Source of the DNA: Candidatus Magasanikbacteria bacterium RIFCSPHIGHO2_01_FULL_33_34
Lineage (GTDB): Bacteria > Patescibacteriota > Patescibacteriia > Magasanikbacterales > UBA922
NCBI GenBank assembly: GCA_001782825.1
Contig: MFPS01000008.1
Coordinates: 9,012-73,011 of the forward strand
Length of the DNA: 64,000 bases
Direction: 5' to 3'
The number at the start of each line of letters is the position of its first letter. Position 1 is the first letter of the stretch. The translations under genes were made by a program, and so were the position numbers. The notes beneath the pieces were generated by a model that was given only the letters and a program-made list of their open reading frames with translations, was not told where the DNA came from and did not search any database. This document shows positions 5,824 to 41,536 of this stretch, one piece after another.

Positions 5824-7092
5824 ATGTCAAATCCTTTTAGTAATGCAATGAGACAGTTGGATAAGGCTGCTGATATCATCAATTTGGATAAAAATATTCA
5901 TGAAATATTGAAGTCACCTGATAGGGTAGTTTCTATTTCTATACCTGTAAAAATGGATAATGGGGATATAAAAGTATTTGCAGGGTTTCGTAGTCAATAC
6001 AATAATACATTAGGTGTGTATAAAGGTGGTATTAGATATCATCATGGAGTAACTATTGATGAAGTAAAAGCTTTATCATTTTGGATGGCAATCAAATGTG
6101 CGGTTGTAAATATTCCAATGGGCGGTGCTAAAGGCGGGGTTATAGTTTCTCCAAAAGAATTATCTGAAGGTGAGATTGAAAGATTGTCTCGTGGTTATAT
6201 ACAAAAAATATGGCGATTAATTGGATCAGATAAAGATGTGCCAGCGCCGGATGTATATACAACTCCACAGATTATGGCTTTGATGCGCGATGAATATGAA
6301 AAATTAGTCGGACATACAGATCCAGGTGTTATTACTGGTAAACCGATTGAAAATGGTGGTTCTGAGGGTAGGTCTTTTTCAACTGCGCAAGGTGGGGTAT
6401 ATTGTGTAGATGAATTAGCCAAGAAAATGAATTGGGTTTCAGAGAATACAACGATTGCAATTCAAGGGTATGGTAATGCCGGGTCTCATATGGCTCGTAT
6501 TTTACATGGATTAGGTTATAAAATTGTGGCGATTAGTGATTCAAAAGGTGGTGTCTATAATGAAGATGGGATTGATCCAGCCAAAGCTGAACAAATAAAA
6601 AAATCTGGTGGACGACTTGGTTGTTATTGCGTGGGTACGGTTTGTGATATTGTTGATATCAGTACCGATGGCCCATGTAGAGCCATTAGTAATGATGAGA
6701 TTCTTGAATTGGATGTTGATATTTTAATTCCAGCTGCGCTTGAGAATGTTATTACTATTGAAAATGCTGACAAAATAAAAGCAAAGACAATCGTAGAGCT
6801 TGCAAATGGACCAACTACGCCAGAAGCCGATGAAATTTTGAATAAAAATGGTGTGGTAATTGTTCCAGATGTATTGGCAAATGCTGGTGGTGTAACAGTA
6901 AGTTATTTTGAATGGGATCAAAATGTAAAAGGTGAACATTGGACTGAAATGGAAGTTTTGAATAAGTTGGAAAAAATAATGAAAAATGCTTTTGATGATG
7001 TGTGGAGTATAAAAGAAAAATATAATATTGATATGAGAACATCTGCGTTTGTTTCGGCAGTTGAAAGAATTGCTAAAAAGATAAAAATTTAA
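5824..7092 (+). CDS. gdhA: NAD(P)-dependent glutamate dehydrogenase (Glu/Leu/Phe/Val dehydrogenase family)
   Basis: Catalytic lysine motif PMGGAKGG, Rossmann GYGNAGSH; 422 aa. Confidence 0.9.
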   Translation: MSNPFSNAMRQLDKAADIINLDKNIHEILKSPDRVVSISIPVKMDNGDIKVFAGFRSQYNNTLGVYKGGIRYHHGVTIDEVKALSFWMAIKCAVVNIPMGGAKGGVIVSPKELSEGEIERLSRGYIQKIWRLIGSDKDVPAPDVYTTPQIMALMRDEYEKLVGHTDPGVITGKPIENGGSEGRSFSTAQGGVYCVDELAKKMNWVSENTTIAIQGYGNAGSHMARILHGLGYKIVAISDSKGGVYNEDGIDPAKAEQIKKSGGRLGCYCVGTVCDIVDISTDGPCRAISNDEILELDVDILIPAALENVITIENADKIKAKTIVELANGPTTPEADEILNKNGVVIVPDVLANAGGVTVSYFEWDQNVKGEHWTEMEVLNKLEKIMKNAFDDVWSIKEKYNIDMRTSAFVSAVERIAKKIKI

Positions 7093-11600: not shown

Positions 11601-11606
11601 GTTTAG
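8604..11606 (+). CDS. leuS: leucyl-tRNA synthetase with inserted alpha/beta serine-hydrolase domain
   Basis: HIGH (HVGH), KMSKR, CP1 editing domain (TTRPDT, AVPAHDERDWEFA), WGAPIPMV and LPVKLPDDV motifs; ~190-codon in-frame insertion (9964-10545) with FIHGYGG / AHSLGG / FDSNCPVIP / NGPHF hydrolase motifs; 1000 aa versus ~800-860 typical. Confidence 0.95.
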   Translation: MQEYNPNKIESKWQKEWEKNGLYKTPEDVIIENKMYILPQLPYPSGSGLHVGHAEVYSACDIYARYQRMQKKKVLQVIGWDSFGLPAENYAIKNNVHPKISTDKAIDNFRSQIKSLGISVDWDREVGAHNPDYYKWTQWFFLLMYRRGLAYRKKQSVNWCDSCKTVLANEQVVEGHCERCDTEVVQRKMDQWFLKITDYADRLAKDLDKVDWPAETKRRQRQWIGRSDGAEVDFKIKDFDYKISVFTTRPDTLFGATYLVLAPEGLIVQELRGQVENWLEVEKYIDETKKKTELNRQTQKEKTGVELKGIKAINPVNGKEMPIWIADYVLSTYGTGSIMAVPAHDERDWEFAKKFGLEIKVVVIPVIDSRPDELLNEKINFYTNETLQHGSYSKEGLSVNSNFLDGLKSEEAKEKMIAWLEEYNVGKRKVQFKLRDWSVSRQRFWGAPIPMVFNETRKNKKYEYIFIHGYGGDSESNYFPKLKKDLEAIGHTVIAFDLPNTEKPNICEQMQFLLENISISENTVILAHSLGGAVAMKMLEHENKKVAKVIFSDCFFEPKFADVARPVVESSCDWNFDFEKLKTLSEEFVVVFDSNCPVIPREHSEKFAKNLDARIVFARANGPHFMSIHEPIILEESLVNGLKPVKFDDLPVKLPDDVDFKPTGQSPLTYSKDFQKGIEDKYGLGWEREVDTLDTFMCSSWFYYRYLDPKNDDEFASSIALKKWMPVDFYLGGEEHVNGHLLYSRFFTKVLFDAGYIDFDEPFMMHRHQGMILGEDSKKMSKRWSNVINPSDVVDEFGADTFRVYEMFMGPLEQTKPWNTDGVRGARRFLDRVWNLYKKVNSTENLEVEYDSILHKTIKKVGDDLATFRFNTAIAKMMELTNEFVKSDKIRHTDFELFLKILSPFAPHMTEELWSDMGNKKSISLEVWPQYDENKVMDSKIIVVAQVNGKVRASFEVDVDISESDIKKIVLEDAVVKKWLAGKEPKKVIYVKGKLVSVVV

Positions 11607-11608
11607 TT

Positions 11609-13060
11609 ATGAATTACAATATAATAAATTCCAAAAGCAAAACGTTTATAGCGTTTTGTTTTTCTTTTCTTATTGGTGTTGTAATAGCCTCAATATTTAA
11701 ATTTAATTTTGATTATGTAGTCTGGGGTTTTGTGTTTGTAATTTTGATTGGATTATTAGTTGCATTTAGAAAAAGTAAAAGTAAAGTATTTATTTTTGTA
11801 AATGTACTATTGATTATACTAGGAATTTGTAGATATAATTTTGCCTTGCCAAATGATAATGAAAAATATATTAGCCATTATAATGGCAATAAGTTTAAAT
11901 TTGTTGGTTATATTAGCACTGAGCCAGATGTACGAATTGTTGATATTCGTTATGTAGTTCAAAGTGATGATTTAAAAGGCAAAGTCTATTTTAAAAGTAC
12001 TTTATATCCAAGATATGATTATGGAGATAGAGTTGAGATTGAATGTGATTTGGTAACACCAGAGGCATTTGATGATTTTAGGTATGATATGTATTTGGCA
12101 AATATGGGTGTATTTTCATTGTGTGTGAATCCTTATGTATCCAGGTTAGATGGATATGGTGGTAGTATATTTTTTCGTGAAATAATGAAGTATAAAAATA
12201 TTTTTGCTGGGCAAATAAATAAGTTATGGCATGAGCCATATGCTAGTTTTATGGCTGGACTTTTGTATGGTTATCGTGGTGGTTTGGGAGATTTGCAGGA
12301 ACATTTTAATAGGACTGGTATTACTCATATCGTGGCAATTTCTGGATATAATATTTCAATTATTTCAATAATGTTGATTACAATATTTGTTCGATTATGG
12401 ATTCCAAGAAAAAAAGCATTTTGGATTATTATTTTTTGTATTTTTTTGTTTGTAATATTTGCTGGGGCAAGCGGGTCTGTTGTCCGAGCTGGGATTATGG
12501 GGTCAATAGTTCTTTTGTCCAAGTATTTGGGTAGGAAAAATAGAATGGCGAATACTATTATTTTTACAGCCGTATTGATGACAATTTATAATCCATTTGT
12601 ATTGGTATGGGATATTGGATTTCAATTGTCATTTTTGGCTACAATTGGGTTGGTTTATTTGTTGCCAATTTTAGAAGATAAATTTAAAAAATTTCCTAAT
12701 TTGTTTTCAATAAAGACATTATTTTTATCTACTATTTCGGCTATTATACTGACATTTCCATTGACATTGTATCAGTTTGGTAGATTTTCAATCGTAGCTC
12801 CAGTCGTTAATATATTGGTTTTGTGGTTGATTCCATTTATAATGTTATTTGGTTTTATTAGTGTTTTATTGAGTTTTCTTTTTTATCCAATTGGGCAAAT
12901 GTTCGCTTGGCTTACTTTTTTAGGTTTGAAATATATAACATTTATTACAGTTTGGTTTTCTACTTTTGAATATTCTTCTGTTGAATTTCAAGTACCATTA
13001 TTTTTTATCTTTGTTATTTATTTTGTAATCTTTTTTATTATTTATAAATTAAAAAAATGA
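11609..13060 (+). CDS. comEC: ComEC/Rec2 DNA-internalisation protein, N-terminal membrane (competence) domain only
   Basis: 483-aa polytopic protein with ComEC competence-domain architecture (N-terminal DUF4131-like region, TGITHIVAISGYNISII block); the MBL domain is encoded separately downstream. Confidence 0.75.
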   Translation: MNYNIINSKSKTFIAFCFSFLIGVVIASIFKFNFDYVVWGFVFVILIGLLVAFRKSKSKVFIFVNVLLIILGICRYNFALPNDNEKYISHYNGNKFKFVGYISTEPDVRIVDIRYVVQSDDLKGKVYFKSTLYPRYDYGDRVEIECDLVTPEAFDDFRYDMYLANMGVFSLCVNPYVSRLDGYGGSIFFREIMKYKNIFAGQINKLWHEPYASFMAGLLYGYRGGLGDLQEHFNRTGITHIVAISGYNISIISIMLITIFVRLWIPRKKAFWIIIFCIFLFVIFAGASGSVVRAGIMGSIVLLSKYLGRKNRMANTIIFTAVLMTIYNPFVLVWDIGFQLSFLATIGLVYLLPILEDKFKKFPNLFSIKTLFLSTISAIILTFPLTLYQFGRFSIVAPVVNILVLWLIPFIMLFGFISVLLSFLFYPIGQMFAWLTFLGLKYITFITVWFSTFEYSSVEFQVPLFFIFVIYFVIFFIIYKLKK

Positions 13061-13120: not shown

Positions 13121-13654
13121 TTGTCCAGACAACGCATATTTAGGCATAATCAATTGTCTTTGGGGTTAACAGATCATAATGTTAAGGTAGGTGTACGAGA
13201 TAATTCAGGAGAAACTATTGTTATAAGTAATCCAACATTACTTTCAGAAGTTTGTCAAAATTATACTCAAATGCCATTTAGGCTTGGTTATAAATATCCC
13301 ATAGATGAGATACTAGATTGTTGGCTAGAAATTTTTGATGCTAGTAGTAATAGCATTGGTCGGATTTATAGGAATGGTATCTTCTATTTTATGGAGATAG
13401 ATACACTCAAAGAAGCTTTGGGGTGGCTTATTTTGACTAGTCTTGGTAGAGAAGTAGAGGTGGATACACTATATAATTTAAACAATGTGATTAGAGTACT
13501 TCGATCTAAAATCAATAATGGTAATTATTTAACAGATGAATACTTACTCAGTATATTAAATTATAGTTGTAGATATAAAGTTGATCTATCTGTTGCTCGT
13601 GATCTGTTTATTATGGTTAATAATAAAGAGAATGATAAAATTTGTGATAAGTAG
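13121..13654 (+). CDS. hypothetical protein (TTG start) inserted between the two ComEC gene halves
   Basis: 177-aa ORF; strong SD AGGAGG 5 nt upstream of TTG; own downstream terminator; no recognisable motif. Confidence 0.55.
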   Translation: MSRQRIFRHNQLSLGLTDHNVKVGVRDNSGETIVISNPTLLSEVCQNYTQMPFRLGYKYPIDEILDCWLEIFDASSNSIGRIYRNGIFYFMEIDTLKEALGWLILTSLGREVEVDTLYNLNNVIRVLRSKINNGNYLTDEYLLSILNYSCRYKVDLSVARDLFIMVNNKENDKICDK

Positions 13655-13769: not shown

Positions 13770-14678
13770 ATGAAAAAAACATTTTTTATAGTTTTGGCAT
13801 TTTTAGTAGTAGTTATTGTAATGTTGATTTATATAAAAATTGATAAAAAAACTATTATTAAGAGTGTGGAAAATACTAGTATTTCTCCACAGGATAAAAA
13901 TGAATTTAAAAGTTATTTGAAAGTAAGCTTTTTGGATGTTGGGCAGGGTGATGCGAGTATGATTGAGTGGCCTAGTGGCAAGCAAATGCTGGTGGATTGT
14001 GGCAGGGATGCGAGTGTTTTGTCTGGTCTGGGAGATTTTATGCCTTTTTATGATAAATATATAGATTATTTATTGATCACTCATCCAGATTATGATCATT
14101 TTGGTGGATGTATTGATGTTTTGAAGAGATTTGATATCGGAGAGATTGTATATAATGGTTTAGTTGCGGATAATAAGGCTTGGGATTATTTTTGGGATTT
14201 GGCGATTTCTGAAGGTGCAACTATAACTCGCATTAGTAAATTGGATACATGGAAGATTGAAAATTCAGAGTTGAAATTTTTGTACCCAGATTCAGATATT
14301 TCTATTAAGGGTATAAATAATAATGATAGTTCAATTGTGTTTCTTTTATCATTTGGAGAAATGGATATTTTGTTTACAGGGGATGCAGAAGAAGGGTTGG
14401 AAGAATATTTGGTAACTACATATGATAATATTCTTGATTCAGAAATATTAAAAGTTGGACATCATGGTAGCGGGACATCATCAATTACAAAGTTTATTGA
14501 TGCTGTTAAACCAAAATATTCTGTGATTTCTGTTGGTGAAGATAATAATTATGGACATCCTTCATTGAGAGTATTAAAACGATTAGAAAGGGTTCAAAGT
14601 GAAGTTTTTAGGACTGATTTATTGGGTAATATTAGCTTTAATATTTATGAAAATCGTATTGAAAGAGTGTTTGAATGA
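13770..14678 (+). CDS. ComEC-type metallo-beta-lactamase domain protein (C-terminal half of ComEC)
   Basis: N-terminal TM anchor; SFLDVGQGDASMIEWPSGKQMLVDCG, HPDYDHFGG, TGDAE, KVGHHGS motifs typical of the ComEC MBL nuclease domain. Confidence 0.8.
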   Translation: MKKTFFIVLAFLVVVIVMLIYIKIDKKTIIKSVENTSISPQDKNEFKSYLKVSFLDVGQGDASMIEWPSGKQMLVDCGRDASVLSGLGDFMPFYDKYIDYLLITHPDYDHFGGCIDVLKRFDIGEIVYNGLVADNKAWDYFWDLAISEGATITRISKLDTWKIENSELKFLYPDSDISIKGINNNDSSIVFLLSFGEMDILFTGDAEEGLEEYLVTTYDNILDSEILKVGHHGSGTSSITKFIDAVKPKYSVISVGEDNNYGHPSLRVLKRLERVQSEVFRTDLLGNISFNIYENRIERVFE

Positions 14679-15417: not shown

Positions 15418-16107
15418 ATGTATAAAATACTTTCAGTTGGTGGATCAATTGTTATTCCAAAAACAGGTTTCAATGTTCCTTTTTTGAAAAAGTTTAAAGC
15501 CATGATCTTACGACGGGTTTCCCAAGGAGAAAAATTTATTTTGGTTATTGGTGGTGGTGCGACTGCTAGATTATATCAAGCTGGAGCCCAAAAAACATCA
15601 AAATTATCCAATGATGAATTGGATGAATTGGGGATTTATACTACAGTTTTGAATGCGCAGTTTGTGCGGTATATGTTTAAAGACTTTGCTTATAATGAAG
15701 TTGTAAGTAATCCGACCAAAAAAATTAAGACAGACAAAGCCATAATAATTGCTTCTGGTTGGAAACCGGGTTGTTCTACTGATTATGATGCAGTTTTGTT
15801 AGCCAAAACTTATGGCGCAAAGGAAGTTTTAAATTTATCAAATATTGAGTATGTGTATGATAAAGATCCAGCAAAGTTCAAGAATGCCAAAAAGATTGAG
15901 GAGATTGGCTGGGAGGCATTTAGGCGGGATATAGTAGGGGATAAATGGGTAGCAGGCAATAATGCTCCATTTGATCCAATTGCTAGTCGCGAGGCGCAAA
16001 AGTTGGGTTTGGTGGTATCAATATTGAAAGGCAGTGATTTGGCAGAAGTACAAAAAGCTTTGAGTGGAAAAAAATTCAGAGGTACTGTGGTTGGTAAAAC
16101 TTTGTAA
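15418..16107 (+). CDS. pyrH: amino-acid-kinase family protein, archaeal-type UMP kinase-like
   Basis: 229 aa; SVGGS..., VIGGGATAR glycine-rich kinase motifs; length and architecture match short archaeal-type UMP kinases. Confidence 0.55.
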   Translation: MYKILSVGGSIVIPKTGFNVPFLKKFKAMILRRVSQGEKFILVIGGGATARLYQAGAQKTSKLSNDELDELGIYTTVLNAQFVRYMFKDFAYNEVVSNPTKKIKTDKAIIIASGWKPGCSTDYDAVLLAKTYGAKEVLNLSNIEYVYDKDPAKFKNAKKIEEIGWEAFRRDIVGDKWVAGNNAPFDPIASREAQKLGLVVSILKGSDLAEVQKALSGKKFRGTVVGKTL

Positions 16108-17870: not shown

Positions 17871-18716
17871 TTATTCAGGTTTTGTATATTTTTTAAGAAT
17901 ACCATCTTTATCATAATACCAAACTTGGTTTCTAGATGGTTCTTTTTCATGACCCGGTTCAATATTTTCTCCCTCTAGTACAGATGCTCCAAATTCACCT
18001 TTAGCTGCATAAAGTGCTTTATCTGATTTTATTTTTAGTGCCTCTAAATCAGCCACTTCATTTTGTGGTGCGTTTACTCCAGCGCTGATAGTGACATCAA
18101 TTTTTTTTCCTTCGTATTTAAATTCGTATTTTGCAACTGCTCTTCTTAATTTTTCTGCTACCTCCGGTCCACTACCATTTGCATTAGCTGCTAATACTAC
18201 TAGTTCTTCTCCGCCGTAGCGAGTAACAATGTCTCCTTCACGTAATGTATTTTTTAGAACTTCTGCCAAGGTCTTGAGCACATAGTCACCACCGGCGTGT
18301 CCATAATTGTCATTAATACTCTTAAATTTGTCCACATCAATCATAATAAAAGAAAATTCTTTATTTTCTCTTTTTCTTCTCTCTAGGTCTTTCTCTAGAG
18401 CTACACGATTTGGTAGTTTGGTAAGTGAATCAGTTTGACCTTTTATTCTTTCAAGTATGGTTTCTTTTATGGATCTTTCTATAACTTTGCTACCAGGACC
18501 ACTTTCGTATATAGAAGTTGGTTCATCTGGTTCTTCAGAACGCAAATTATCTTCCTCAACTGCATAGGATTGAATAATTGTTTCTTTTGACACACCTAAT
18601 TCTTCGGCAAATTTTTCCATTCTTTTATCAAAAGCTTCACGTTCAGCTTGCATTTTTTCTTCGTATGATAATTCTGGCATATTATTTGGATTATATCCAC
18701 CACTTTCTATACTCAT
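17871..18716 (-). CDS. GGDEF-domain diguanylate cyclase (GGEEL variant) with coiled-coil N-terminus
   Basis: LTKLPNRVALE..., FIMIDVDKFKSINDNYGHAGGD, I-site REGD, active site RYGGEEL. Confidence 0.85.
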   Translation of the reverse strand: MSIESGGYNPNNMPELSYEEKMQAEREAFDKRMEKFAEELGVSKETIIQSYAVEEDNLRSEEPDEPTSIYESGPGSKVIERSIKETILERIKGQTDSLTKLPNRVALEKDLERRKRENKEFSFIMIDVDKFKSINDNYGHAGGDYVLKTLAEVLKNTLREGDIVTRYGGEELVVLAANANGSGPEVAEKLRRAVAKYEFKYEGKKIDVTISAGVNAPQNEVADLEALKIKSDKALYAAKGEFGASVLEGENIEPGHEKEPSRNQVWYYDKDGILKKYTKPE

Positions 18717-18762
18717 ATATTATTTATTTAGTATATGTTTTTAAATTATTATGGTCAAGTAA

Positions 18763-20439
18763 TTATATTGATTTTACCATATAGCTTCCTTTTTTTGAAT
18801 AACCCACTTTTTTGTAATAACCTTTGACGCCAACTCCTGAAATAACGCTAATTTTTTTGAATTTATTTTTTTTAGCAATTTTTTCCGCTTCAAGTAATAG
18901 TTTTTTACCCATACCTTTGTGTTGACTGGCTTTTTTATCACTTTTGCCAATTTCTAGGAGTTGTCCATAGGTGTGAAGTTCGCGGACAAAAGCAGTATTT
19001 TTTATCTCGGGTATCAATTCGTATAATTCTTTTGGCGCTTTTATTGTTGGGATTCGGAGACGCAAAAAAGCATAAACTGCAATTCTGTCTTTGTCTTCAA
19101 AGGTTATAAAATATTCTGTACCACCAATTGTTTCATAAGTATCTATAAATAATTGTGGTTTGGCATCGGCTGGTAGGTTTTTGAATTGACGAGATATTTC
19201 ACGACAGCGCAGACAAACACAATCTTTGCCTTTTTTGAGTATTTCTTTTTTTAATGATTCGCGTAGGTTTGTAATTGAGTTGCCGGCAGTTATTTCTTCT
19301 GATGGAATATCACGGATAAGGCGAGAGATTCTACAATAACGTGGAGTAGTTAATTTCATTTGTATAAGAGCTTCAAATAATTCATTTTCACCATATGGAG
19401 TATATCTACCATCTTTGAACCATTCATAAAGTTCAGCCGAAGCAATGACTGTATTTGGATAAATTTTTACCATATCTGGACACAAGCCAATGTCTGTGAA
19501 TAAACTAGCATACATTTCTACATCATGTTTTGGGGTTGTACCAGGCAAGTCTGGCATAAAATGGAGGTCAACCTTAAAACCAGCTTGACGCAGGAGTAAC
19601 ATAGCATCGCGAAATTGCTGTACAGTGTGTCCGCGTTTTACTAATTCTAATATTTCATCATCAGGTGCTTGGAGGCCAAGTTCAATGCGAGTACAACCTT
19701 GTTGACGCATATGGAAAATAGTTTTTGGGGTGATTGCGTCTGGTCTGGTTTCTAGAGTTAAACCAATAATACGATATTTTGCTTTTTCGTTTTTTTTCTG
19801 TTCTTTTGCCACAGCCTTTTGTAATTCTTCTAGTGGTGAATTTTGATTAATTGTATGTTTAAATGTTTGTATGTTTAAATGTTTAGATGCTAGTTCATTG
19901 CAGGCGCGAAAAGATTCCAAAATAAACCAATATTGGTATTTGAGTGGATAAGAATTCCAGGTTCCACCTTTTATTATGTATTCGATTTTTTCAGTTGGGT
20001 GGCCGTTGGCTTCGAGCATTTGGATTCTTTTTTGCATTTGTACATATGGATCAAATTTGAGCCCAAGGGCGCGGGCGGCCGCTGGTTCAGAAGCAATATA
20101 GCTTTTTGGCATTCTAGTTTCTGTTGGACAGTAGACACATTTTCCTGGACAAGCGTATGGTTTTACTAGAGATGTGACTATAGCAATACCGGAAAGGGTG
20201 CGAATATCGGCTTTTCTTAAAAATAATTCTATTCTTTTATCTTTTTTGACTCTTTTATTTTTTAGCATTTTCTGATAGGCTTTTAGTAGGTCAGGATTTG
20301 ATGGTTGTTTCATTTTGAGTTTACCAGCCACTTGTCTGCGAGCACTATCAAATTGCGCCTTGGTTTGAGGCGATTTTGCAATAATTTCAATTATAATATT
20401 TTCAAGTAAGTTTTCTTTCATATATGGATAATAATTCAA
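18763..20439 (-). CDS. Elp3-like radical-SAM/GNAT tRNA wobble-uridine modification enzyme
   Basis: Radical SAM cluster motif CPGKCVYCP, C-terminal GNAT acetyl-CoA site (KGMGKKLLLEAE); ORF track uses a TTG at 20439, first ATG is at 20421. Confidence 0.8.
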   Translation of the reverse strand: MNYYPYMKENLLENIIIEIIAKSPQTKAQFDSARRQVAGKLKMKQPSNPDLLKAYQKMLKNKRVKKDKRIELFLRKADIRTLSGIAIVTSLVKPYACPGKCVYCPTETRMPKSYIASEPAAARALGLKFDPYVQMQKRIQMLEANGHPTEKIEYIIKGGTWNSYPLKYQYWFILESFRACNELASKHLNIQTFKHTINQNSPLEELQKAVAKEQKKNEKAKYRIIGLTLETRPDAITPKTIFHMRQQGCTRIELGLQAPDDEILELVKRGHTVQQFRDAMLLLRQAGFKVDLHFMPDLPGTTPKHDVEMYASLFTDIGLCPDMVKIYPNTVIASAELYEWFKDGRYTPYGENELFEALIQMKLTTPRYCRISRLIRDIPSEEITAGNSITNLRESLKKEILKKGKDCVCLRCREISRQFKNLPADAKPQLFIDTYETIGGTEYFITFEDKDRIAVYAFLRLRIPTIKAPKELYELIPEIKNTAFVRELHTYGQLLEIGKSDKKASQHKGMGKKLLLEAEKIAKKNKFKKISVISGVGVKGYYKKVGYSKKGSYMVKSI

Positions 20440-21119
20440 AGCTAATTATACGTCAGAACAGGGAAGTCTACAATAAAATTGCCGACCATTTTTCTGATAC
20501 CCGATCATTTTTATGGCGTGATTTAGAACCATTATCAACCTTTGTCCATGATAGAGATAGTATATTAGATATTGGTTGTGGTAATGGCAGATTATATCAG
20601 CTTTTTACAGATTTGTCCATAGCTTTTACTGGCATTGATATTGCAGAGGGTCTTATTGAAATTGCCAAGGAAAAGTATCCAAAAGCTAGGTTTGTGGTGG
20701 GTGATATGGTTAGTCTTCCTTTTGAAGATCAAGAATTTGATGTAGTTTTTAGTTTGGTGGCATTTCATCACTTACCAGACGAGGAATCTCAATTAAAATC
20801 ATTGGCAGAGATGGGCAGAGTATTAAAAAAAGGTGGAAAAATAATATTATTGAATTGGAATGCTTATAGTGATTGGGTTAGCGAAAAATTAAAAAAAGGG
20901 GATTATAAGGAGTTGGGGGATCATTTGTTTGAAGTTCCTTGGAAAACACAAAAGAAAGAAAATTTGGGAAATAGAATATATTATGGTTTTACTTTGGAAG
21001 AATTAGAAAAATTATTTGAAAAAACTGGCCTTAATTTAGAAGATCAATATTATTTGCGTCATGGTGAAAAAGTTGGGGTTGATAAGGGGATGAATATTGT
21101 GAGTATTTTGAGTAAATAA
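20424..21119 (+). CDS. Trm9-like class I SAM-dependent methyltransferase
   Basis: VYNKIADHFSDTRSFLW...LDIGCGNGR closely parallels the yeast Trm9 N-terminal/motif I pattern (VYNEIAPHFSQTRYKPW...LDIGCGNGKY); acidic motif II VVGDM, HHL. Confidence 0.7.
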   Translation: MDNNSKLIIRQNREVYNKIADHFSDTRSFLWRDLEPLSTFVHDRDSILDIGCGNGRLYQLFTDLSIAFTGIDIAEGLIEIAKEKYPKARFVVGDMVSLPFEDQEFDVVFSLVAFHHLPDEESQLKSLAEMGRVLKKGGKIILLNWNAYSDWVSEKLKKGDYKELGDHLFEVPWKTQKKENLGNRIYYGFTLEELEKLFEKTGLNLEDQYYLRHGEKVGVDKGMNIVSILSK

Positions 21120-21124
21120 ATTGA

Positions 21125-21988
21125 TTATTTCCCAGTAATCAAACAGACAATTGTTCCATTCCATTTCCAATTATTTTTAATAGCTTTTTGGAGTCCAGCG
21201 ATTGAGAGGGCGCTGTTTGGGGATATGTCTATATCAGTCTTTTCTTTTACTAGTTTGATTGCTTTTCTAATTTCTTTGTCAGTTGCAATCCAACCAAAAC
21301 CTTGGCTTTTTTTTATTAATTCAATAATTTTTTCCTTTCTGTGGGCGACTTTGTCCACGATTGCGCCAGCGATTGATCGGTCAGTATTTTCAAAATTTTT
21401 GTCAAAGTTTTCTGCAATTGGGTGGCAGTTAGTTGTTTGAATTATATGAATTTGTGTATTTATAACTGCTAATGCTTGTGCGGTTGTTCCAGATGAAGTT
21501 GGAATAAAGATTGCTTGTAAATTTTTAATTTCTTTTAATTCTTTGGTGAGAGATTTGTATCCGGTAAGTGCAAGGTCATCGGTTGATTGGCGTAAGTTTA
21601 CGGCTATTTTTTCTTTGTCCATTTTGAAGGCTGTTTGTTTAGGGTTATGAACTTGTTCAATAATTATATTTTCATCTGTAATTTCATTTTGCAGGAGCCT
21701 GTATTTTATTTGTTCAATATTTTTTCCTATTAAAATTTTAAGAGTAACTTTTGTGTTCACTTTATTATTTTCTTGAATATATCTAATGGATGCTAGAGCG
21801 GCATTACCAGAGGATGAAATGACAAAATTGGTTGTACCTTTTTTAATATAAGTTTCAATCATCAATGGAATTGAACGGCCTTTGTGGGATCCATATGGGT
21901 TCAAGTCTTCTCTTTTGAGGATTATATTGGATACTCCAAGTGCTTTGGCTAATTTTGGGTATGAATTTTGGGGTGTTTTTGTTTCCAT
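21125..21988 (-). CDS. PLP-dependent fold-type II (TrpB/threonine-synthase-like) enzyme, short form
   Basis: ILKREDLNPYGSHKGR (PLP-lysine region), SSSGNAALA glycine loop; only 287 aa. Confidence 0.5.
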   Translation of the reverse strand: METKTPQNSYPKLAKALGVSNIILKREDLNPYGSHKGRSIPLMIETYIKKGTTNFVISSSGNAALASIRYIQENNKVNTKVTLKILIGKNIEQIKYRLLQNEITDENIIIEQVHNPKQTAFKMDKEKIAVNLRQSTDDLALTGYKSLTKELKEIKNLQAIFIPTSSGTTAQALAVINTQIHIIQTTNCHPIAENFDKNFENTDRSIAGAIVDKVAHRKEKIIELIKKSQGFGWIATDKEIRKAIKLVKEKTDIDISPNSALSIAGLQKAIKNNWKWNGTIVCLITGK

Positions 21989-22127: not shown

Positions 22128-22292
22128 ATGAATTTAAACTGTCCAGAATGTAAAAATGATGTAGATTTGTCCGTGTTTCCAAATTTAGAAAAGGATCAGG
22201 TTATTGAGTGTAATACTTGTGGTATTTCTTTGCTTGTGACAGAAATTAATGGTGATGCTGTGACTGCAGAAGTTACTGACGAAGGCAAGTAA
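22128..22292 (+). CDS. small zinc-ribbon protein, LysW-like architecture (not in ORF track because <60 aa)
   Basis: 54 aa MNLNCPECKNDVDLSVFPNLEKDQVIECNTCGISLLVTEINGDAVTAEVTDEGK: two CxxC pairs spaced as in amino-group carrier LysW; 3' end overlaps convergent mpl stop by ~20 nt. Confidence 0.3.
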   Translation: MNLNCPECKNDVDLSVFPNLEKDQVIECNTCGISLLVTEINGDAVTAEVTDEGK

Positions 22293-23661
22293 TCAATTGT
22301 TCAATCATACCTCGGAAGCCACGCGAACCCAGAAAGACGACACAATCGTCTTTTTTTGTATTATTAATTAAGTATTGAATTAATTCTTTATCATTTTCAA
22401 TGTATTTTACATTGTGATGTGTTTGTCCTATTATTTCAGCAAGTTTTTTACCGTTAGCTGGAGTTTCAGTATCATTTTGGTCTATTTTAATTTTGGATAA
22501 ACGTGGAATTATAATTTGATCAGCATTTTCAAAAGCATCAGCATATCCAGAGAAAGAAGCGGGTTTTCTATTGCCGGTATTGGGTTCAAAAATTGCAATT
22601 ATTTGTCCGTGGTAAATTGATTTGAGAGTTTTTAAAACGGACATAGCTTTTTGGGGTGAGTGAGCAATGTCGTCAATTATGGCAATATCATTTTCATATC
22701 TTTTTTCTAAGCGTCTTTTTATACCTTTGAAAGATTTAATTGATTTTATAATTGTATCGGTTTTTATGCCAGCAATTTGGGCCATTGCAAAGCAAGCTGT
22801 TATATTAGCTACTTGGTAATCGCCCAAAATATTAGTTTCAATCTTATACTTATTATCTTTATTTGAAATAGTAAAAGATAGTCCATTTTTGTTTAATTGA
22901 ATATCAGAATAATAATAATCATTTTTGGTATCTTTTCCGTATTTGATAATATTACAAGTTGATGAGGCAATAATTTCATTGACTTTTTTGTCGTCAGCAC
23001 AAGCAACAATTGTGCCATTGTTTGGGATTGATTTTGCAAGTTTTTCAAATGCTTCAAAATATGATTTTTCAGTCGGGTATACATCTGCATGGTCCCAAAT
23101 CACTGATGTAAGTAATAGGTGGGTTGGTTGATAATGTGTGAATTTGGCAGAATTATCCCAACGACTGCTTTTATATTCATCACCCTCAAGGATTGACCAA
23201 TGGGAATTACCTATATATGCGGCATCAATATTATTCTGGGAAAGTCCACCAAACATATAGCTAGGGTCTAGTCCAGACTCTAAAAAAATAAATGATAGTA
23301 GTGAGCTGGTGGATGTTTTGCCATAAGTACCAGCACAGACAATAGAATTTTCTTTGACAAAATATTTGGCGATTGCTTCAGGATATGATTTGTAGGGGAT
23401 ATTATTTTTTTGAACATATAGCCATTCTGGGTTGGTGGAACTAGCAACATTTCCAACCACCACCAAATCTGGTTTTCCTATTTTTTCTGGATGCCAGCCA
23501 GGATAAAAATCAATTTTATTTTTTTCTAAATGAGTTGAAATTGGCGGAAAAAAACCAGCGTCAGATCCGGTGACGCGCCAACCTTTTTTTTGGAAGGCAA
23601 TGGCAAGTGCGCTCATAGCTACACCGCATATACCTATAAAATGTATGTGTTTATTTTCCAT
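22273..23661 (-). CDS. mpl: Mur ligase family protein, Mpl/MurC-type (UDP-MurNAc peptide ligase)
   Basis: N-terminal HFIGICGVAMSALA...GWRVTGSD (Mpl/MurC signature), central ATP-binding GTYGKTSTSS; 462 aa. Confidence 0.75.
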   Translation of the reverse strand: MENKHIHFIGICGVAMSALAIAFQKKGWRVTGSDAGFFPPISTHLEKNKIDFYPGWHPEKIGKPDLVVVGNVASSTNPEWLYVQKNNIPYKSYPEAIAKYFVKENSIVCAGTYGKTSTSSLLSFIFLESGLDPSYMFGGLSQNNIDAAYIGNSHWSILEGDEYKSSRWDNSAKFTHYQPTHLLLTSVIWDHADVYPTEKSYFEAFEKLAKSIPNNGTIVACADDKKVNEIIASSTCNIIKYGKDTKNDYYYSDIQLNKNGLSFTISNKDNKYKIETNILGDYQVANITACFAMAQIAGIKTDTIIKSIKSFKGIKRRLEKRYENDIAIIDDIAHSPQKAMSVLKTLKSIYHGQIIAIFEPNTGNRKPASFSGYADAFENADQIIIPRLSKIKIDQNDTETPANGKKLAEIIGQTHHNVKYIENDKELIQYLINNTKKDDCVVFLGSRGFRGMIEQLITCLRQ

Positions 23662-24331
23662 TTTGTTTTAAAATATTTTTTAATTCATCTAAATCAGTTC
23701 TCCATTTTGTACCATCAAACCATTCAAGTCCTGTGAATTGTAATTTGTATACATCTTTTGGTCTCTGAGCTGAACCCAAATAAATATATTGCATATCGTT
23801 TTGTTTGGCAGCAGTAATTGCCATAATCATCATACCCATACCAATATTGTTTATTTTTTCAGTAGATAAACCTAGTTTATAAAACGGGTATGAGTAGTGA
23901 GTAATAGTTGGATTTGCGTAACTTATAGTATAGCCAATGATATCTTTTTCGTTATGTTCATTGGATAAATTATATATAAACAATGTATTAAAATTATTTT
24001 TTTTATTTGTCAGTAGCTCTTTTATTTTATTTGCCGAAAAAGTTCCTTTTTTGAATTTTGTGTCATAAAAATCTTTGGCCATTTTGCCTATAGACCAGTT
24101 GTATTTTTCATAAGGGATAGATTCTATATTCAAATTTAGACCTTCAATTTTTTTTAATATTCTTCTATTTTCACTAGATAATTTAAATTTTGACAAATTA
24201 ATTCGGAGGCTTCTGGTTTGGTGCATAATTCCATACCCAAGTCGAGTAAAAACATAGCCCTCAGAGTAGAGGGAATTTATATTATTGTCAGCAAAATCTG
24301 TAATTGTTTTTTCATTCCATTTTAAGTACAT
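23651..24331 (-). CDS. ATE/Bpt-like aminoacyl-tRNA-protein transferase family protein (GNAT/Fem-like fold)
   Basis: C-terminal block YIYLGSAQRPKDVYKLQFTGLEW matches ATE_C pattern Y-x-G-x4-P-K-x2-YK-x2-F-x3-E; 226 aa; overlaps mpl start by 11 nt. Confidence 0.45.
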   Translation of the reverse strand: MYLKWNEKTITDFADNNINSLYSEGYVFTRLGYGIMHQTRSLRINLSKFKLSSENRRILKKIEGLNLNIESIPYEKYNWSIGKMAKDFYDTKFKKGTFSANKIKELLTNKKNNFNTLFIYNLSNEHNEKDIIGYTISYANPTITHYSYPFYKLGLSTEKINNIGMGMMIMAITAAKQNDMQYIYLGSAQRPKDVYKLQFTGLEWFDGTKWRTDLDELKNILKQNGK

Positions 24332-25530: not shown

Positions 25531-25712
25531 TATAATAGCTAGGGTTACATCTTAAACTATCATTGCACAGGTTTCAATTATTTATTTTTACTCCCTGCCT
25601 GCCGGCAGGCAGGATTCTCGCTTTGGCTCCGAGGGTGATGCCTGTTGTGGCATCAAATCCGTAAAAACAAATAATTGAAACCAATGTTTAATTATAAATA
25701 TCGCTTTTAATT
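25531..25712. repeat. structured palindromic intergenic repeat, copy a
   Basis: 17-nt inverted repeat CAATTATTTATTTTTAC...GTAAAAACAAATAATTG enclosing perfect 20-bp palindrome CCTGCCTGCCGGCAGGCAGG and hairpin GATGCCtgttgtGGCATC; near-identical copies at ~38395-38575 and ~49075-49262. Confidence 0.8.
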
Positions 25713-27779
25713 TTTTTCATCTAATGCATTTAATCTGCGTATTTCAAGTGTTTTTGCTTGTGTTGCGCGTATATAAGTTTCGTTTTCTTGATTTGTTTTG
25801 CATTGTTCTGTCCAGAGTTGGTCTAATAATCCCGCATTTTCATTGATTATTTCAATTTCTCCTTCACGAACACCATGATTGTATTTGCCATCTTTATTCC
25901 AGGCAAATGAGTGGACATATGAGATTTTTTTGATAGATAAGTTGTTGGTTGAATCAGGTGTATTGTATTCACAATTGGTTTTGGTGATTACAATGATATG
26001 ATCACGGTCTTGTTTTATGCCAGCATTTATCATTACTATAAAATCACCAGGTTTAATATTTTTTTTGAGTATAGAGTGACTATTTTCATCTTGTGCAAAA
26101 GTTAAAACATTTACATTTTGTACAATTCTTAATTTGGCTATTAATTTTCTAAAAATATTTTTTATTGTAGGGAATTTGATTACAGATTGTAAGGATTTAT
26201 TAGTCTTTGCTTTTAATTCCGCATTCAATATATAGTAGGCAAGACCAGAGCAATCAATACCTATATTATTGTCTACTAACAATTGTTTGGTTTGTTCCTG
26301 ATTGAATTTGTCTAAGTTTATTTTATTTTTTTGGGCGATGATAGAGATTTCTTCTATAATTTCTTTTGGATTACCTTTGCCAGTAAAAACTTTCAAGCCA
26401 CCGCGTATTTTTTGACGCGCATTATTAAAATAAGGTACAGAAATAAAATTATTTTTGATTGGTAAGTTCAAATAAGCATCAATTACTTTTTGGGCTTCAT
26501 TACTTAAAAAAGCAATATTTGGACAAATTATGTGTAGAATTTTTTTGCCAATATCACTTAGTCTATTGTGATCTGTCATGACTGATTGGTTGCTTTGTAT
26601 TCTCAATAGTTCTGTACCAATATTTTTATTATTGTAACCAATAACATCTAGATTATTTTTCTTTAAATCATTTATTATTTTTGTAATCTGTGGTGACCAA
26701 TCATTGTTGTGAATAATTCGTTTTATAATTTGTGAACCATTGGATATTGGTATTAATTTTTCTGTTGATGTATCTATATTGAGTAATCCTGCTAGATGAG
26801 CTTCAAAAATATTTATGCCATCATACTTAACTTTATTTTGTAGGATTGATTCAAAAGTAGTTGAAGCTGGCTGGCGAGCATTGACTTCTATCAAATACAT
26901 TTTTTTGGTTTTTTGGTCCATTATAATATCTACCCCAAATAGTCCTTTCCAGCCAAGCTCTTTTAATTTTTCAGATACTGATCTGACTATATTTTTAAAA
27001 TTTTCAATATCTACTTGAGTAAGTAATTTGTTTACTAATCCCCAGTCATTACCAATAGTTGAAAATGGCTTGTCAGTAAAATATTTAATACCAGTTATTT
27101 GATAACTAATGTTCCCGATTATTAAATCATTACCACTTAATGCATTATTATTTGTAAATATTGGACCTTCTACAAAATCTGAAATTCTAGCTTCTCTTTC
27201 TGGAAATTGTTTTTTAATTGTATCTAATTTTTCTTGACTATCAATCAAAACAGTGCCACTGCCAGTATGTGAATAATTGAATTGTAAGATAAATTTTTCT
27301 TTATTCCATTTTATATCTTTGCATTTTTCTATTTTGTAATTTAAAAAAAATTCGTTCAATGATTTGAAAATTTCAACTTGTGAAATTTTTTCTTCAATTT
27401 TATTTGATATTTTAGATGGTGGATTTAGTAGATTCCATTTATTTTCTTCACATATTTTTTCAATTTGTGCTGTATTTTTAAAAACCAAGATTGATGGATT
27501 TGTAAATTTTTTAATAAATTCTTTTGTGTCAGTATGCTTTAAAAGTTCTGCGGTACTTAATATTTCTTTTTCTTTTATTAAAAGAATATTTTTTTTGTTG
27601 ACGCTTGATTGTTTGGCAAAATCATTATTGTTTGAGATAATAAAATAACCCTCTGTGTCAGGATCAATGCTCATAGCCCTTTCAATATCACGAGTTACAT
27701 AAATTATCGGGTTTGATTTGAGTTTGTCAGTTAGGCTTTTCATAAATGTGATTATACTGTAAAATGTATGTGATTGCAA
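25707..27779 (-). CDS. ATP-grasp ligase fused to C-terminal NlpC/P60 (CHAP-like) cysteine peptidase domain
   Basis: ATP-grasp core (SHTGSGTV..., GLFGVDIIMDQKTKKMYLIEVNARQ); C-terminal GIDCSGLAYYIL ... KPGDFIVM ... DHIIVI ... YVHSF matching NlpC/P60 Cys-His-His arrangement; 690 aa. Confidence 0.65.
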   Translation of the reverse strand: MQSHTFYSIITFMKSLTDKLKSNPIIYVTRDIERAMSIDPDTEGYFIISNNNDFAKQSSVNKKNILLIKEKEILSTAELLKHTDTKEFIKKFTNPSILVFKNTAQIEKICEENKWNLLNPPSKISNKIEEKISQVEIFKSLNEFFLNYKIEKCKDIKWNKEKFILQFNYSHTGSGTVLIDSQEKLDTIKKQFPEREARISDFVEGPIFTNNNALSGNDLIIGNISYQITGIKYFTDKPFSTIGNDWGLVNKLLTQVDIENFKNIVRSVSEKLKELGWKGLFGVDIIMDQKTKKMYLIEVNARQPASTTFESILQNKVKYDGINIFEAHLAGLLNIDTSTEKLIPISNGSQIIKRIIHNNDWSPQITKIINDLKKNNLDVIGYNNKNIGTELLRIQSNQSVMTDHNRLSDIGKKILHIICPNIAFLSNEAQKVIDAYLNLPIKNNFISVPYFNNARQKIRGGLKVFTGKGNPKEIIEEISIIAQKNKINLDKFNQEQTKQLLVDNNIGIDCSGLAYYILNAELKAKTNKSLQSVIKFPTIKNIFRKLIAKLRIVQNVNVLTFAQDENSHSILKKNIKPGDFIVMINAGIKQDRDHIIVITKTNCEYNTPDSTNNLSIKKISYVHSFAWNKDGKYNHGVREGEIEIINENAGLLDQLWTEQCKTNQENETYIRATQAKTLEIRRLNALDEKN

Positions 27780-37829: not shown

Positions 37830-37835
37830 TTATTT

Positions 37836-38366: not shown

Positions 38367-38394
38367 ATGTATTTTGTTGGAAATTATATGTAAG

Positions 38395-38575
38395 CTATAA
38401 TAGCATTATTTATATTTTTATCTATGACCGCATTATTTTCAATTATTTGTTTTTACTCCCTGCCTGCCGGCAGGCAGGATTCTCGCTTTGGCTCTGAGGG
38501 TGATGCATGTTGGGGCATCAAATCCGTAAAAACAAATAATTGAAAAAATGCTTAATTATAGATAATGCTCTTAAT
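38395..38575. repeat. structured palindromic intergenic repeat, copy b
   Basis: Outer TIR AGCATTATTTATA / TATAGATAATGCT, inner 17-nt IR CAATTATTTGTTTTTAC / GTAAAAACAAATAATTG (perfect), 20-bp perfect palindrome, GATGCAtgttggGGCATC hairpin. Confidence 0.8.
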
Positions 38576-38584
38576 TTTTACAAA

Positions 38585-41525: not shown

Positions 41526-41536
41526 AAAATTAAAAA

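Follow-up and report, generated by a model that had tools for sequence, protein, structure and literature searches.

A divergent pair of genes encoding Elp3 and a Trm9-type methyltransferase is real and widespread in Patescibacteria; it adds a new member to a known pathway and does not represent a new kind of system. The pair most likely provides a two-step route to mcm5U34 at the wobble uridine (U34) of tRNA. The pair was examined in a stretch of DNA of 64,000 nucleotides (hereafter the window), and its features are summarized in Table 1.

Table 1. Positions of genes, motifs and candidate promoter elements in the window.
Feature	Coordinates	Strand	Description
Elp3 CDS	18763..20421	-	552 aa + stop; radical-SAM domain and KAT/GNAT domain
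Elp3 KAT acetyl-CoA motif QHKGMGKKLL	18895..18924	-	aa 500-509; aligned to MinElp3 QHMGYGRMLM
Elp3 radical-SAM motif CPGKCVYC	20128..20151	-	aa 91-98; C91, C95, C98
Elp3 N-terminal extension	20206..20421	-	~aa 1-72; Lys/Arg-rich, 19/72 K/R (counted from translation)
Candidate -10 box, perfect TATAAT	20392..20397	+	26 nt upstream of methyltransferase ATG; within Elp3 codons 9-10
Back-to-back start codons CAT AT ATG	20419..20426		read from the sequence; gap 2 bp
Candidate Trm9-type tRNA (carboxymethyluridine34-5-O)-methyltransferase	20424..21119	+	231 aa + stop; class I
Alternative promoter-like site CTGACG-17-TATTAT	20428..20456	-	consensus match only
Candidate -10 box, perfect TATAAT	20445..20450	-	23 nt upstream of Elp3 ATG; within methyltransferase codons 8-9
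N-terminal helix motif VYNKIADHFSDTRSFLW	20466..20516	+	aa 15-31; Y16 and R27 (ScTrm9 Y18, R29)
SAM-binding motif I LDIGCGNGR	20565..20591	+	aa 48-56 of methyltransferase
Zinc ribbon, 54 aa	22128-22292		LysW-like; PF21344 30.6 vs cut-off 27

Identity of the two enzymes

The minus-strand gene is a full-length Elp3, predicted to form cm5U34. The original prediction had described an Elp3 homologue with radical-SAM and GNAT domains, and the profile searches that it had proposed were run and bore this out. The curated NCBIfam model TIGR01211 matched with 503.7 bits (cut-off 350, E 5e-151), and the match was full length, with residues 12-551 of Elp3 on model positions 5-521 of 522. The Pfam models PF04055 and PF16199 both exceeded their cut-offs. 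The best solved relatives in the PDB were the Elp3 proteins of M. infernus (MinElp3, 6ia8, E 5e-108) and D. mccartyi (DmcElp3, 5l7j, E 6e-104). MinElp3 aligned end to end with the protein. This alignment paired C91, C95 and C98 with the cysteines of the Fe-S cluster in MinElp3 (CPHGKCIFC), took in the acetyl-CoA motif (Q/RxxGxG/A type) and ran through residue 551 in the KAT region. The scores of the Pfam GNAT models over residues 497-546 were just under the gathering scores (20.0 vs 23.6). The alignment began at residue 72 against DmcElp3 and at residue 54 against MinElp3. Hence, Elp3 has an extended basic N-terminus of the archaeal/eukaryotic type, with approximately 72 residues before the DmcElp3-aligned core. 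Archaeal and eukaryotic Elp3 proteins share this basic N-terminus, which is required for tight tRNA binding and which DmcElp3 lacks (PMC6367351).

The plus-strand gene is, as judged from its family profile and active-site residues, an orthologue of Trm9 and the ALKBH8 methyltransferase domain, not a generic UbiE-like enzyme. PF08241, the model proposed for checking it, matched with 87 bits (E 1e-24). In the single-sequence PDB search, generic methyltransferases outranked Trm9. The Foldseek comparison with the Yarrowia lipolytica Trm9 structure (5cm2_Z) gave a target-normalised TM-score of 0.81, at which Trm9 took rank 4 and many other methyltransferases scored alike. A family profile and residue mapping were needed because neither search discriminated among class I methyltransferases. 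For the profile of 41 homologues, the top PDB match was 5cm2_Z (94.9 bits, E 4e-26), which covered profile positions 22-221 of 230, was 10 bits over the next match and was the sole near-full-length match. The hhalign comparison with 14 named fungal Trm9 sequences gave a probability of 99.94% (E 7e-37, 199 columns), and the methyltransferase was approximately 25% identical to fungal Trm9.

Residues R27, D72, H116, W145, W173, R184, Y186 and N224 of the methyltransferase correspond to R29, D72, H116, W145, W168, R241, Y243 and N271 of ScTrm9, whose alanine mutants are inactive or strongly weakened (PMC4678810). Moreover, Y16 and H115 correspond to ScTrm9 Y18 and H115. The mapping to ScTrm9 was checked via the Yarrowia numbering (P0122). 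Residues Y16 and R27 of the VYNKIADHFSDTRSFLW motif were invariant in the Patescibacteria homologues and in fungal Trm9, and the Trm9 signature residues were invariant or nearly so in the 41 homologues. The roles of Y18 and R29 have been described for ScTrm9; in the modelled enzyme, N271 reads O2/N3 of uracil, H115 reads O4, W145 stacks on the base, and R29, R241 and Y18 hold the carboxylate (PMC4678810). The AF2 model of the methyltransferase (pLDDT 94.7) had the class I SAM-methyltransferase fold with a lid, a beta-hairpin between strand 5 and helix E, with extra strands at residues 162-174. The structure 6f5z was considered as Haloferax Trm9; its description in the fold search was Hvo_0019, and it was left out of the Trm9 evidence.

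The signature proteins and fungal Trm9 were placed apart from the remaining methyltransferases in a Poisson-distance NJ tree, in which the groups were predefined by the signature and the bootstrap value for the exact Trm9 bipartition was moderate (112/200). The methyltransferase did not group with unrelated small-molecule methyltransferases, the placement that the original prediction had named as telling against it. Its likeness to Trm9 stands on the family profile, the active-site residues, this tree and the linkage to Elp3. The longer relatives examined among the best 150 representative-library matches were extended at the N-terminus or had added NUDIX or WecG parts; these additions are probably gene-call run-ons and uninformative on function.

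Gene junction, candidate promoters and linkage of the pair

The minus-strand reading frame (18763-20439) opened with TTG and contained an internal ATG at 20421 in the ORF listing. The ATG was taken as the Elp3 start because of three observations. The public gene call for an identical contig gives an Elp3 of 552 aa with the same 2-bp gap; in the closest relative (L085), where the gap is 0 bp, Elp3 begins with MDIFEKIILEIISKSPKSKAKFDDARRQ, which lines up with MKENLLENIIIEIIAKSPQTKAQFDSARRQ; and the six extra codons from the TTG are not conserved. Given this start, the start codons of Elp3 and the methyltransferase lie 2 bp apart on opposite strands, as originally described, while a start at TTG 20439 would give a 16 bp gene overlap. 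The start gaps in close relatives were 0, 31 and 52 bp.

Candidate promoters were called by consensus matching in a genome of approximately 32% G+C. A perfect TATAAT was located ahead of each gene and inside its partner (Table 1), and no -35 partner was found for the methyltransferase candidate. The background of this hexamer was 0.0012 per position in the coding DNA of the window, and it occurred 11-31 nt before the start in 10 of 43 genes. In the alternative site ahead of Elp3, only 6 nt separate the end of the -10 element from the ATG, which would allow a leaderless mRNA. Motifs resembling Shine-Dalgarno sequences were present in only 2 of the 43 window genes, and the scan of 18500-21400 found no terminators. 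It is plausible that the promoter of each gene is embedded in the partner gene. The original deduction that the promoter of either gene has to sit within the other was sound, and its support consists of consensus hexamers. In several related loci, -10-like hexamers were also observed 5-8 nt before the starts, at a rate that did not clearly exceed the chance expectation for A+T-rich DNA; they would hint at leaderless mRNAs.

The linkage of the pair was evaluated in 80 genome loci (L001-L080) among the matches listed, with methyltransferases retrieved by motif. Elp3 was located within 6 kb of the methyltransferase in 37 of the 51 signature-positive loci and in none of the 29 signature-negative loci. 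The two genes were divergent in 33 of the 37 pairs, and 16 pairs had starts -11 to +21 bp apart. Carriers were found in numerous Patescibacteria lineages and in some Chloroflexota, and a single Crenarchaeota MAG also had the pair. In this MAG (L031), Elp3 and the methyltransferase were in tandem, which echoes the Sulfolobus elp3-trm9 cluster cited in PMC6144793. The only Dehalococcoidia locus among those listed (L065) had neither the signature nor Elp3. The pairing had been called rare in bacteria; this description holds for cultivated bacteria but not for Patescibacteria, where the pair is common, or for some Chloroflexota, and at least 37 species-level genomes carry it. Literature searches brought up no relevant work on Elp3, Trm9 or tRNA modification in Patescibacteria or the candidate phyla radiation.

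Proposed route to mcm5U34 and alternative explanations

The observations are best explained, with high probability in our judgement, by a two-enzyme U34 pathway in which Elp3 makes cm5U34 and Trm9 makes mcm5U34. The radical-SAM and acetyl-CoA-binding KAT domains of Elp3 would attach a carboxymethyl group at C5 of U34, and the Trm9-type methyltransferase would then use SAM to methyl-esterify the carboxyl group of cm5U34. As in archaea, Elp3 would dispense with Elp1/2/4-6, aided by its basic N-terminal tRNA-binding extension, and the methyltransferase would work without Trm112. Each gene would be transcribed from a -10 element within the partner's first ~10 codons, giving short leaders that lack a Shine-Dalgarno sequence, like those of nearly all window genes. 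Transcription is predicted to start near 20404 on the plus strand and near 20438 or 20421 on the minus strand. The promoters would point towards each other at a distance of approximately 34 nt, so that mutual interference or balancing is conceivable. No tRNA genes or Rfam families were detected in the window.

The pathway could be the same and the methyltransferase still need a zinc-knuckle partner of the Trm112 type from another part of the genome, an alternative that we regard as unlikely but as the most serious one. Trm112 is the obligate activator of yeast and H. volcanii Trm9, and HvoTrm9 requires it in vivo (PMC6144793 for Haloferax); Trm112 homologues are also widespread among bacteria (PMC5372719). 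The interface positions F116, V102 and V103 stayed hydrophobic, D117 was also retained, and the search for a partner covered 64 kb of the genome. However, all through the family of 41 homologues, polar or charged residues occupied three of the six hydrophobic positions in the interface core: V59, F78 and P112 of YlTrm9 are replaced by R/K/S/T, E/D/S/T and E, respectively, in the Patescibacteria family. Furthermore, the motif search found no Trm112-like ORF in the window or in L001-L080, where it gave two chance partial matches, and none of the seven longer methyltransferase relatives examined had a Trm112 fusion. The 54-aa zinc ribbon, the sole small one nearby, was tried as a Trm112 substitute and rejected, as it scored 13.9 bits against PF03966 (cut-off 22) and was LysW-like; no homologue of it was found near the pair in L001-L080, indicating that it is unlinked to the pair in distant genomes. 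The partly polar Trm112-binding surface suggests a stand-alone Trm9, since the clade has polar or charged residues in half of the hydrophobic binding core.

The remaining alternatives concern the reaction itself. It is improbable that the methyltransferase acts on another U34 side chain or substrate (e.g., cmo5U, as CmoM does) or that the end product is not mcm5U, e.g., owing to further thiolation or hydroxylation or to another group installed by Elp3. The assignment is based on homology, Trm9-family paralogues of unclear substrate exist (TRMT9B), and the chemistry after cm5U in Haloferax is incompletely understood (PMC6144793), but the residues modelled to read uracil and hold the carboxylate are all conserved. 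Moreover, the linkage to Elp3 recurs in 37 genomes among the matches listed, and the best PDB and NCBIfam matches included no CmoM-type entries. Far less credible still is an unrelated small-molecule methyltransferase (UbiE/BioC/MenG-like) that lies beside Elp3 only through genome compactness. The top NCBIfam and single-sequence PDB matches were generic or small-molecule enzymes, all far under the cut-offs, and JGI names several homologues "UbiE" and two TRM9. These matches spanned the Rossmann core only, whereas the N-terminal helix, the lid and the C-terminal strand matched Trm9 specifically. In addition, the 29 generic methyltransferases obtained by the same motif retrieval lacked the signature, and none of them was beside Elp3.

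Known systems and significance

The archaeal Elp3 and Trm9 (the Sulfolobus cluster; Haloferax HVO_2888 and HVO_1032 with Trm112) resemble the pair in that Elp3 occurs without Elp1/2/4-6 and Trm9 has the same active-site residues, and the genes are clustered in Sulfolobus (PMC6144793, PMC5372719). The host here differs in being a bacterium with bacterial housekeeping genes, and its genes are divergent with abutting starts, not tandem. The Trm112-binding surface is partly polar here, unlike in HvoTrm9, which needs Trm112 in vivo. The eukaryotic Elongator with Trm9-Trm112 or ALKBH8-TRMT112 carries out the same two chemical steps as those predicted here; all eight mutagenesis-defined residues of eukaryotic Trm9 are kept, and the basic Elp3 N-terminus is shared. 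In contrast to the eukaryotic system, no other Elongator subunits are expected here, the methyltransferase is probably Trm112-independent and has no AlkB or RRM domain, and the Cys motif differs from that of eukaryotic Elp3 in being Cx3Cx2C.

The MnmE-MnmG (+ MnmC) xm5U34 pathway also targets C5 of U34, but its enzymes, cofactors and product (cmnm5U/mnm5U) are unrelated to those of Elp3-Trm9. MnmE-MnmG acts on tRNAs reading A/G-ending split-box codons. The annotated part of the window (3.4-49 kb) encodes none of MnmE, MnmG and MnmC. The reference bacterial Elp3, DmcElp3, is also monomer-encoded and closely similar in its rSAM and KAT domains, but it is a weak tRNA binder without the basic N-terminus (PMC6367351), whereas the Elp3 described here has this extension. 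No partner Trm9 of Dehalococcoides is discussed in the literature cited (including PMC7663514).

Bacterial Elp3 has been called confined to Dehalococcoides or a "rare example" (PMC7663514, PMC6367351), and a 2026 paper mentions just "numerous bacteria" as having it. The Trm112-partner methyltransferases were reviewed as lacking bacterial homologues (PMC5372719). The pair constitutes a complete Elp3-Trm9 module, genetically linked, across a large bacterial radiation. To our knowledge, mcm5U34 has been demonstrated so far only in eukaryotes and Haloferax. We tentatively propose, at somewhat less than even confidence, that Patescibacteria and some Chloroflexota make mcm5U34 by a minimal two-protein module. 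This module would pair a Trm112-independent Trm9 with an Elp3 that acts alone and has a tRNA-binding N-terminus of the archaeal type, both expressed divergently from mutually embedded, facing promoters, and it may replace MnmEG in reduced genomes. Should the predicted activities hold, a Trm9 able to fold without Trm112 would offer a handy target for tRNA-bound structures, of which we know none for Trm9. Under the same condition, a bacterial Elp3 whose N-terminus is complete would serve as a better model than DmcElp3, which is weakly active, and the pathway, if true, would bear on the decoding of A-ending split-box codons in very A+T-rich, reduced genomes.

Gene pair, start codons and genomic setting

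The coordinates, motifs and junction given in the original prediction all proved correct. For Elp3, the ATG at 20421 was better supported by sequence comparison than the TTG at 20439, because the public call for an identical ENA metagenome contig (45.8 kb) gives a 552-aa Elp3 and a 2-bp gap; the two starts abut with zero gap in L085, the locus of the closest relative (methyltransferase 76% identical); the N-terminus of the L085 Elp3, MDIFEKIILEIISKSPKSKAKFDDARRQ, aligns with MKENLLENIIIEIIAKSPQTKAQFDSARRQ of the window Elp3; and conservation was absent from the six extra codons. On the same strand, genes for a GGDEF protein, SHMT and TsaE follow the 3′ end of Elp3 at gaps of 46, 19 and 8 bp, and this order recurs in L085. 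The GGDEF gene, also considered in L085 and in L082 (another relative's locus), has its own promoter-like site. The methyltransferase gene ends 5 bp from a convergent PLP-enzyme gene, which is divergent from a LysW-like zinc ribbon. This latter pair, kept in the relatives' loci L082, L083 and L085 despite other genes inserted nearby, may represent an amino-group-carrier-protein system.

Coordinates of the gene pair, candidate promoter elements and other window features
Feature	Coordinates	Strand	Remarks
Elp3 ORF	18763-20439	minus	TTG start; in-frame ATG at 20421; ORF listing
Methyltransferase ORF	20424-21119	plus	ORF listing
Junction of both starts	20419-20426		CAT-AT-ATG
Candidate -10	20392-20397	plus	perfect TATAAT; 26 nt before methyltransferase ATG, Elp3 codons 9-10
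Candidate -10	20445-20450	minus	perfect TATAAT; 23 nt before Elp3 ATG, methyltransferase codons 8-9
Second promoter-like site	20456-20428	minus	CTGACG-17-TATTAT; consensus match; predicted start, A of Elp3 ATG
GGDEF diguanylate cyclase	17871-18716	minus	PF00990, 132 bits
GGDEF promoter-like site	18758-18730		TTGACC-17-TATACT
PLP enzyme	21125-21988	minus	threonine-synthase-like, PF00291
LysW-like zinc ribbon	22128-22292	plus	54 aa
Glutamate dehydrogenase	5824-7092	plus	archaeal models best; NF040817, 514 bits, below cut-off 750
LeuRS	8604-11606	plus	1000 aa; TIGR00396, 934 bits
Split-ComEC region	11609-13060, 13121-13654, 13770-14678	plus	middle ORF, 177 aa
UMP kinase	15418-16107	plus	archaeal type; TIGR02076, 168 bits, above cut-off
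226-aa protein	23651-24331	minus	weakly arginyltransferase-like (ATE_C)
690-aa protein	25707-27779	minus	N-terminal half weakly ATP-grasp-like (NF005096 aa 78-337; sub-threshold Pfam ATP-grasp); NlpC/P60 near threshold (22.4 vs 23 bits)
SecD	33005-35050	plus	681 aa; PpiC/PrsA-type peptidyl-prolyl isomerase region ~aa 261-384, ahead of SecD core
Four successive ORFs	36369-41573		486, 176, 788, 213 aa; no NCBIfam match at E <= 1e-8

The G+C content was ~32% across most of the window, and tRNA and Rfam scans of it gave zero matches. Its housekeeping genes were bacterial (IF-2, bacterial-type LeuRS, SecA, SecD/F, MurB/MurC, MraY, TsaE, ComEC, DusB and purine genes), and all named methyltransferase homologues were from Patescibacteria, e.g., Magasanikbacteria and Paceibacteria. 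The archaeal-like UMP kinase and glutamate dehydrogenase lie in this bacterial context. The unusually long LeuRS carries an alpha/beta-hydrolase-like insert (Abhydrolase_1 and Ser_hydrolase in the public gene call; NF011457 match at aa 413-549) in the region that usually holds the editing domain. ComEC is apparently encoded in two pieces, one with the competence/DUF4131 region and the other with the metallo-beta-lactamase region; a 177-aa ORF with no family match lies between them. The 690-aa and 226-aa proteins are placed amid the murein-synthesis genes MurC, MraY and MurB.

The Elp3 protein covered the whole of NCBIfam TIGR01211 (503.7 bits, cut-off 350) and exceeded the Pfam cut-offs for Radical_SAM and Radical_SAM_C; GNAT models were slightly under theirs. 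The best PDB relatives were Methanocaldococcus infernus Elp3 (MinElp3, E 5e-108) and Dehalococcoides mccartyi Elp3 (DmcElp3, E 6e-104), followed by yeast and human Elp3 (~E 1e-82). The Fe-S cysteines C91, C95 and C98 and the acetyl-CoA motif QHKGMGKKLL (aa 500-509) aligned with those of MinElp3. Moreover, an N-terminal extension of ~72 residues with 19 Lys/Arg (counted from the translation) is present in the window Elp3, whereas DmcElp3 has none. According to Lin et al. (PMC6367351), a basic N-terminus characterises the archaeal and eukaryotic enzymes and is missing in DmcElp3; Elp3 requires it to bind tRNA with high affinity and to hydrolyse acetyl-CoA in response to tRNA.

Methyltransferase identity and linkage to Elp3

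Pfam and NCBIfam assigned the methyltransferase to generic class I only (PF08241), with named NCBIfam families far under cut-offs, and generic enzymes led a single-sequence PDB search in which Yarrowia Trm9 (5cm2_Z) reached just 40 bits. Therefore, family-level evidence was needed. The profile of 41 Patescibacteria homologues (alignment A1) placed 5cm2_Z on top of the PDB matches (94.9 bits, E 4e-26), and this was the sole near-full-length match, lid and C-terminal region included, the others covering the Rossmann core only. Profile-profile comparison of A1 with 14 named fungal Trm9 sequences (alignment A3) gave a probability of 99.94% (E 7e-37, 199 columns).

In S. cerevisiae Trm9 (ScTrm9), the R29A, D72A, H116A, W145A, W168A, R241A, Y243A and N271A mutants were zymocin-resistant and were inactive or at least 10-fold impaired; the accompanying model has the uracil ring engaged by N271, H115 and W145, and the cm5 carboxylate by R29, R241 and Y18 (Létoquart et al., PMC4678810). 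In the joint Patescibacteria and fungal alignment, the window equivalents of these ten signature residues (R27, D72, H116, W145, W173, R184, Y186, N224, H115 and Y16) were all conserved. Nine of the ten positions were invariant in 11 aligned sequences, the exception being W173, which is Phe in one protein (P0076). The published Y. lipolytica Trm9 (YlTrm9) numbers (Y29, R40, H126, H127, W156, W179, R192 and N222) were reproduced exactly, and the residue mapping is therefore valid. The AF2 model had a pLDDT of 94.7; in Foldseek, which did not discriminate among class I methyltransferases, Trm9 ranked fourth, yet had the best target-normalised TM-score (0.81). In the JGI pipeline, two homologues already bear the name 'TRM9', and others are labelled 'UbiE'. 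Three close relatives (P0242, P0257 and P0353) are annotated as C-terminal fusions with NUDIX (two) or WecG glycosyltransferase (one), which are probably gene-call run-ons.

A family-motif scan of one genome per species gave at least 80 loci, in which the methyltransferase was scored for the signature and Elp3 was sought by tblastn. Among the matches listed, Elp3 lay within 6 kb in 37 of the 51 loci with at least 8/10 residues and in none of the 29 with 6/10 or fewer; of the 14 signature-positive loci that lacked it, several were at contig ends. By record title, carriers among these matches included Kuenen-, Magasanik-, Portnoy-, Komeili-, Moran-, Peregrini-, Gracili- and Saccharibacteria, WWE3, Dojkabacteria, Chloroflexota (Aggregatilineales/Anaerolineales), Ca. 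Aquidulcis, 'Multivoraceae' and several MAGs called, by title alone, 'uncultured Gammaproteobacteria'. A Crenarchaeota MAG, so titled, had the two genes in tandem, which matches the elp3-trm9 cluster of Sulfolobus (PMC6144793, PMC5372719). The original prediction called the pairing rare in bacteria; it is not rare within this radiation, the linked loci (at least 37) covering many Patescibacteria lineages, some Chloroflexota and the Crenarchaeota MAG. Furthermore, family-profile matches at E <= 1e-30 in a 50%-identity representative library fell into 1105 clusters. The neighbour-joining tree (Poisson distance) grouped all signature proteins and fungal Trm9 together and separated them from the remaining 29 methyltransferases, and thus the window enzyme did not group with unrelated small-molecule methyltransferases; bootstrap support for the exact Trm9 split was moderate (112/200), and the groups are defined by the signature itself. 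Taken with the family models, the signature and the linkage uphold the Elp3/Trm9-like interpretation.

Divergent layout and candidate promoters

Among the matches listed, 33 of the 37 linked loci were divergent. With the gap taken from the ATG nearest the alignment-predicted start, 16 of these had gaps of -11 to +21 bp, 10 of 43-330 bp and 7 of >0.68 kb. In five distant genomes (L006, L007, L009, L017 and L035), the starts overlap by 2 nt on opposite strands as the palindrome CATG; two loci (L004 and L040) have the 2-bp gap of the window, and the ORFs of L036 overlap by 11 nt. The gaps in close relatives were 0, 31 and 52 bp. Because of the 16 tight loci and these relatives, the abutting head-to-head arrangement is a recurrent clade feature and no accident of the window genome.

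A Shine-Dalgarno-like motif occurred within 25 nt upstream of the start in 2 of 43 window genes; hence, no ribosome-binding site needs room between the starts. Perfect TATAAT lay 11-31 nt upstream of 10 of the 43 starts (rate in window coding DNA, 0.0012 per position). These patterns suggest that short SD-less mRNAs, possibly some leaderless, are the norm in this organism. From such motifs, we infer that the promoters of the pair may be embedded in the partner gene, a weaker claim than the original prediction made. A consensus scan found no -35 for the methyltransferase candidate -10. If the TATAAT boxes are used, transcription would start at ~20404 (+) and ~20438 (-), face to face and 34 nt apart, so that the leaders would be mutually complementary and RNA polymerase footprints would overlap.

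Proposed pathway, Trm112 dependence and significance

The best-supported reading, and a likely one on sequence grounds, is a two-step route in which Elp3 would make cm5U34 and the Trm9 orthologue would methyl-esterify it to mcm5U34. A small-molecule methyltransferase lying beside Elp3 by coincidence is highly improbable, being contradicted by the signature and linkage results, and action on another U34 substrate, or an end product other than mcm5U34, is also unlikely, to a lesser degree.

The same pathway with a Trm112-dependent methyltransferase, which bears on the stand-alone clause only, is a minority possibility; a partner elsewhere in the genome is compatible with the 64 kb inspected. Trm112 is required by eukaryotic and Haloferax Trm9 (Haloferax: PMC6144793), and on the YlTrm9 surface that binds it, V59, F78, V102, A110, P112 and F116 form a hydrophobic core. 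In the 41-member family, the equivalents were mostly R, K, S or T (V59), E, D, S or T (F78) and E (P112), with F116, V102/V103 and D117 retained. A motif search of the window and of the scanned loci L001-L080 gave no Trm112-like ORF. The only zinc ribbon nearby was rejected as Trm112: it is LysW-like (PF21344, 30.6 bits; PF03966, 13.9 vs cut-off 22), and its linkage to the pair is absent in distant genomes. Because of the polar interface positions, the lack of a Trm112-like ORF in the sequence searched and the unsuitable ribbon, the window methyltransferase is judged somewhat likelier to be Trm112-independent than dependent.

A 2017 Trm112 review detected no bacterial genes similar to Trm112-partner methyltransferases and confined archaeal Trm9 to Sulfolobales and Halobacteriales (PMC5372719). 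A 2020 review placed bacterial Elp3 in Dehalococcoides only and noted that evidence for bacterial xcm5U was lacking (PMC7663514); a 2026 paper reports Elp3 in 'numerous bacteria'. Nothing relevant was found in the literature searched that would link Elp3, Trm9 or tRNA modification to Patescibacteria or the candidate phyla radiation. The Elp3-Trm9 pathway is familiar from earlier work, and some members have already been named by automated annotation. Judged from sequence, this locus would add a wide spread among bacteria, a Trm9 that probably acts alone and a divergent gene arrangement of unusual tightness.
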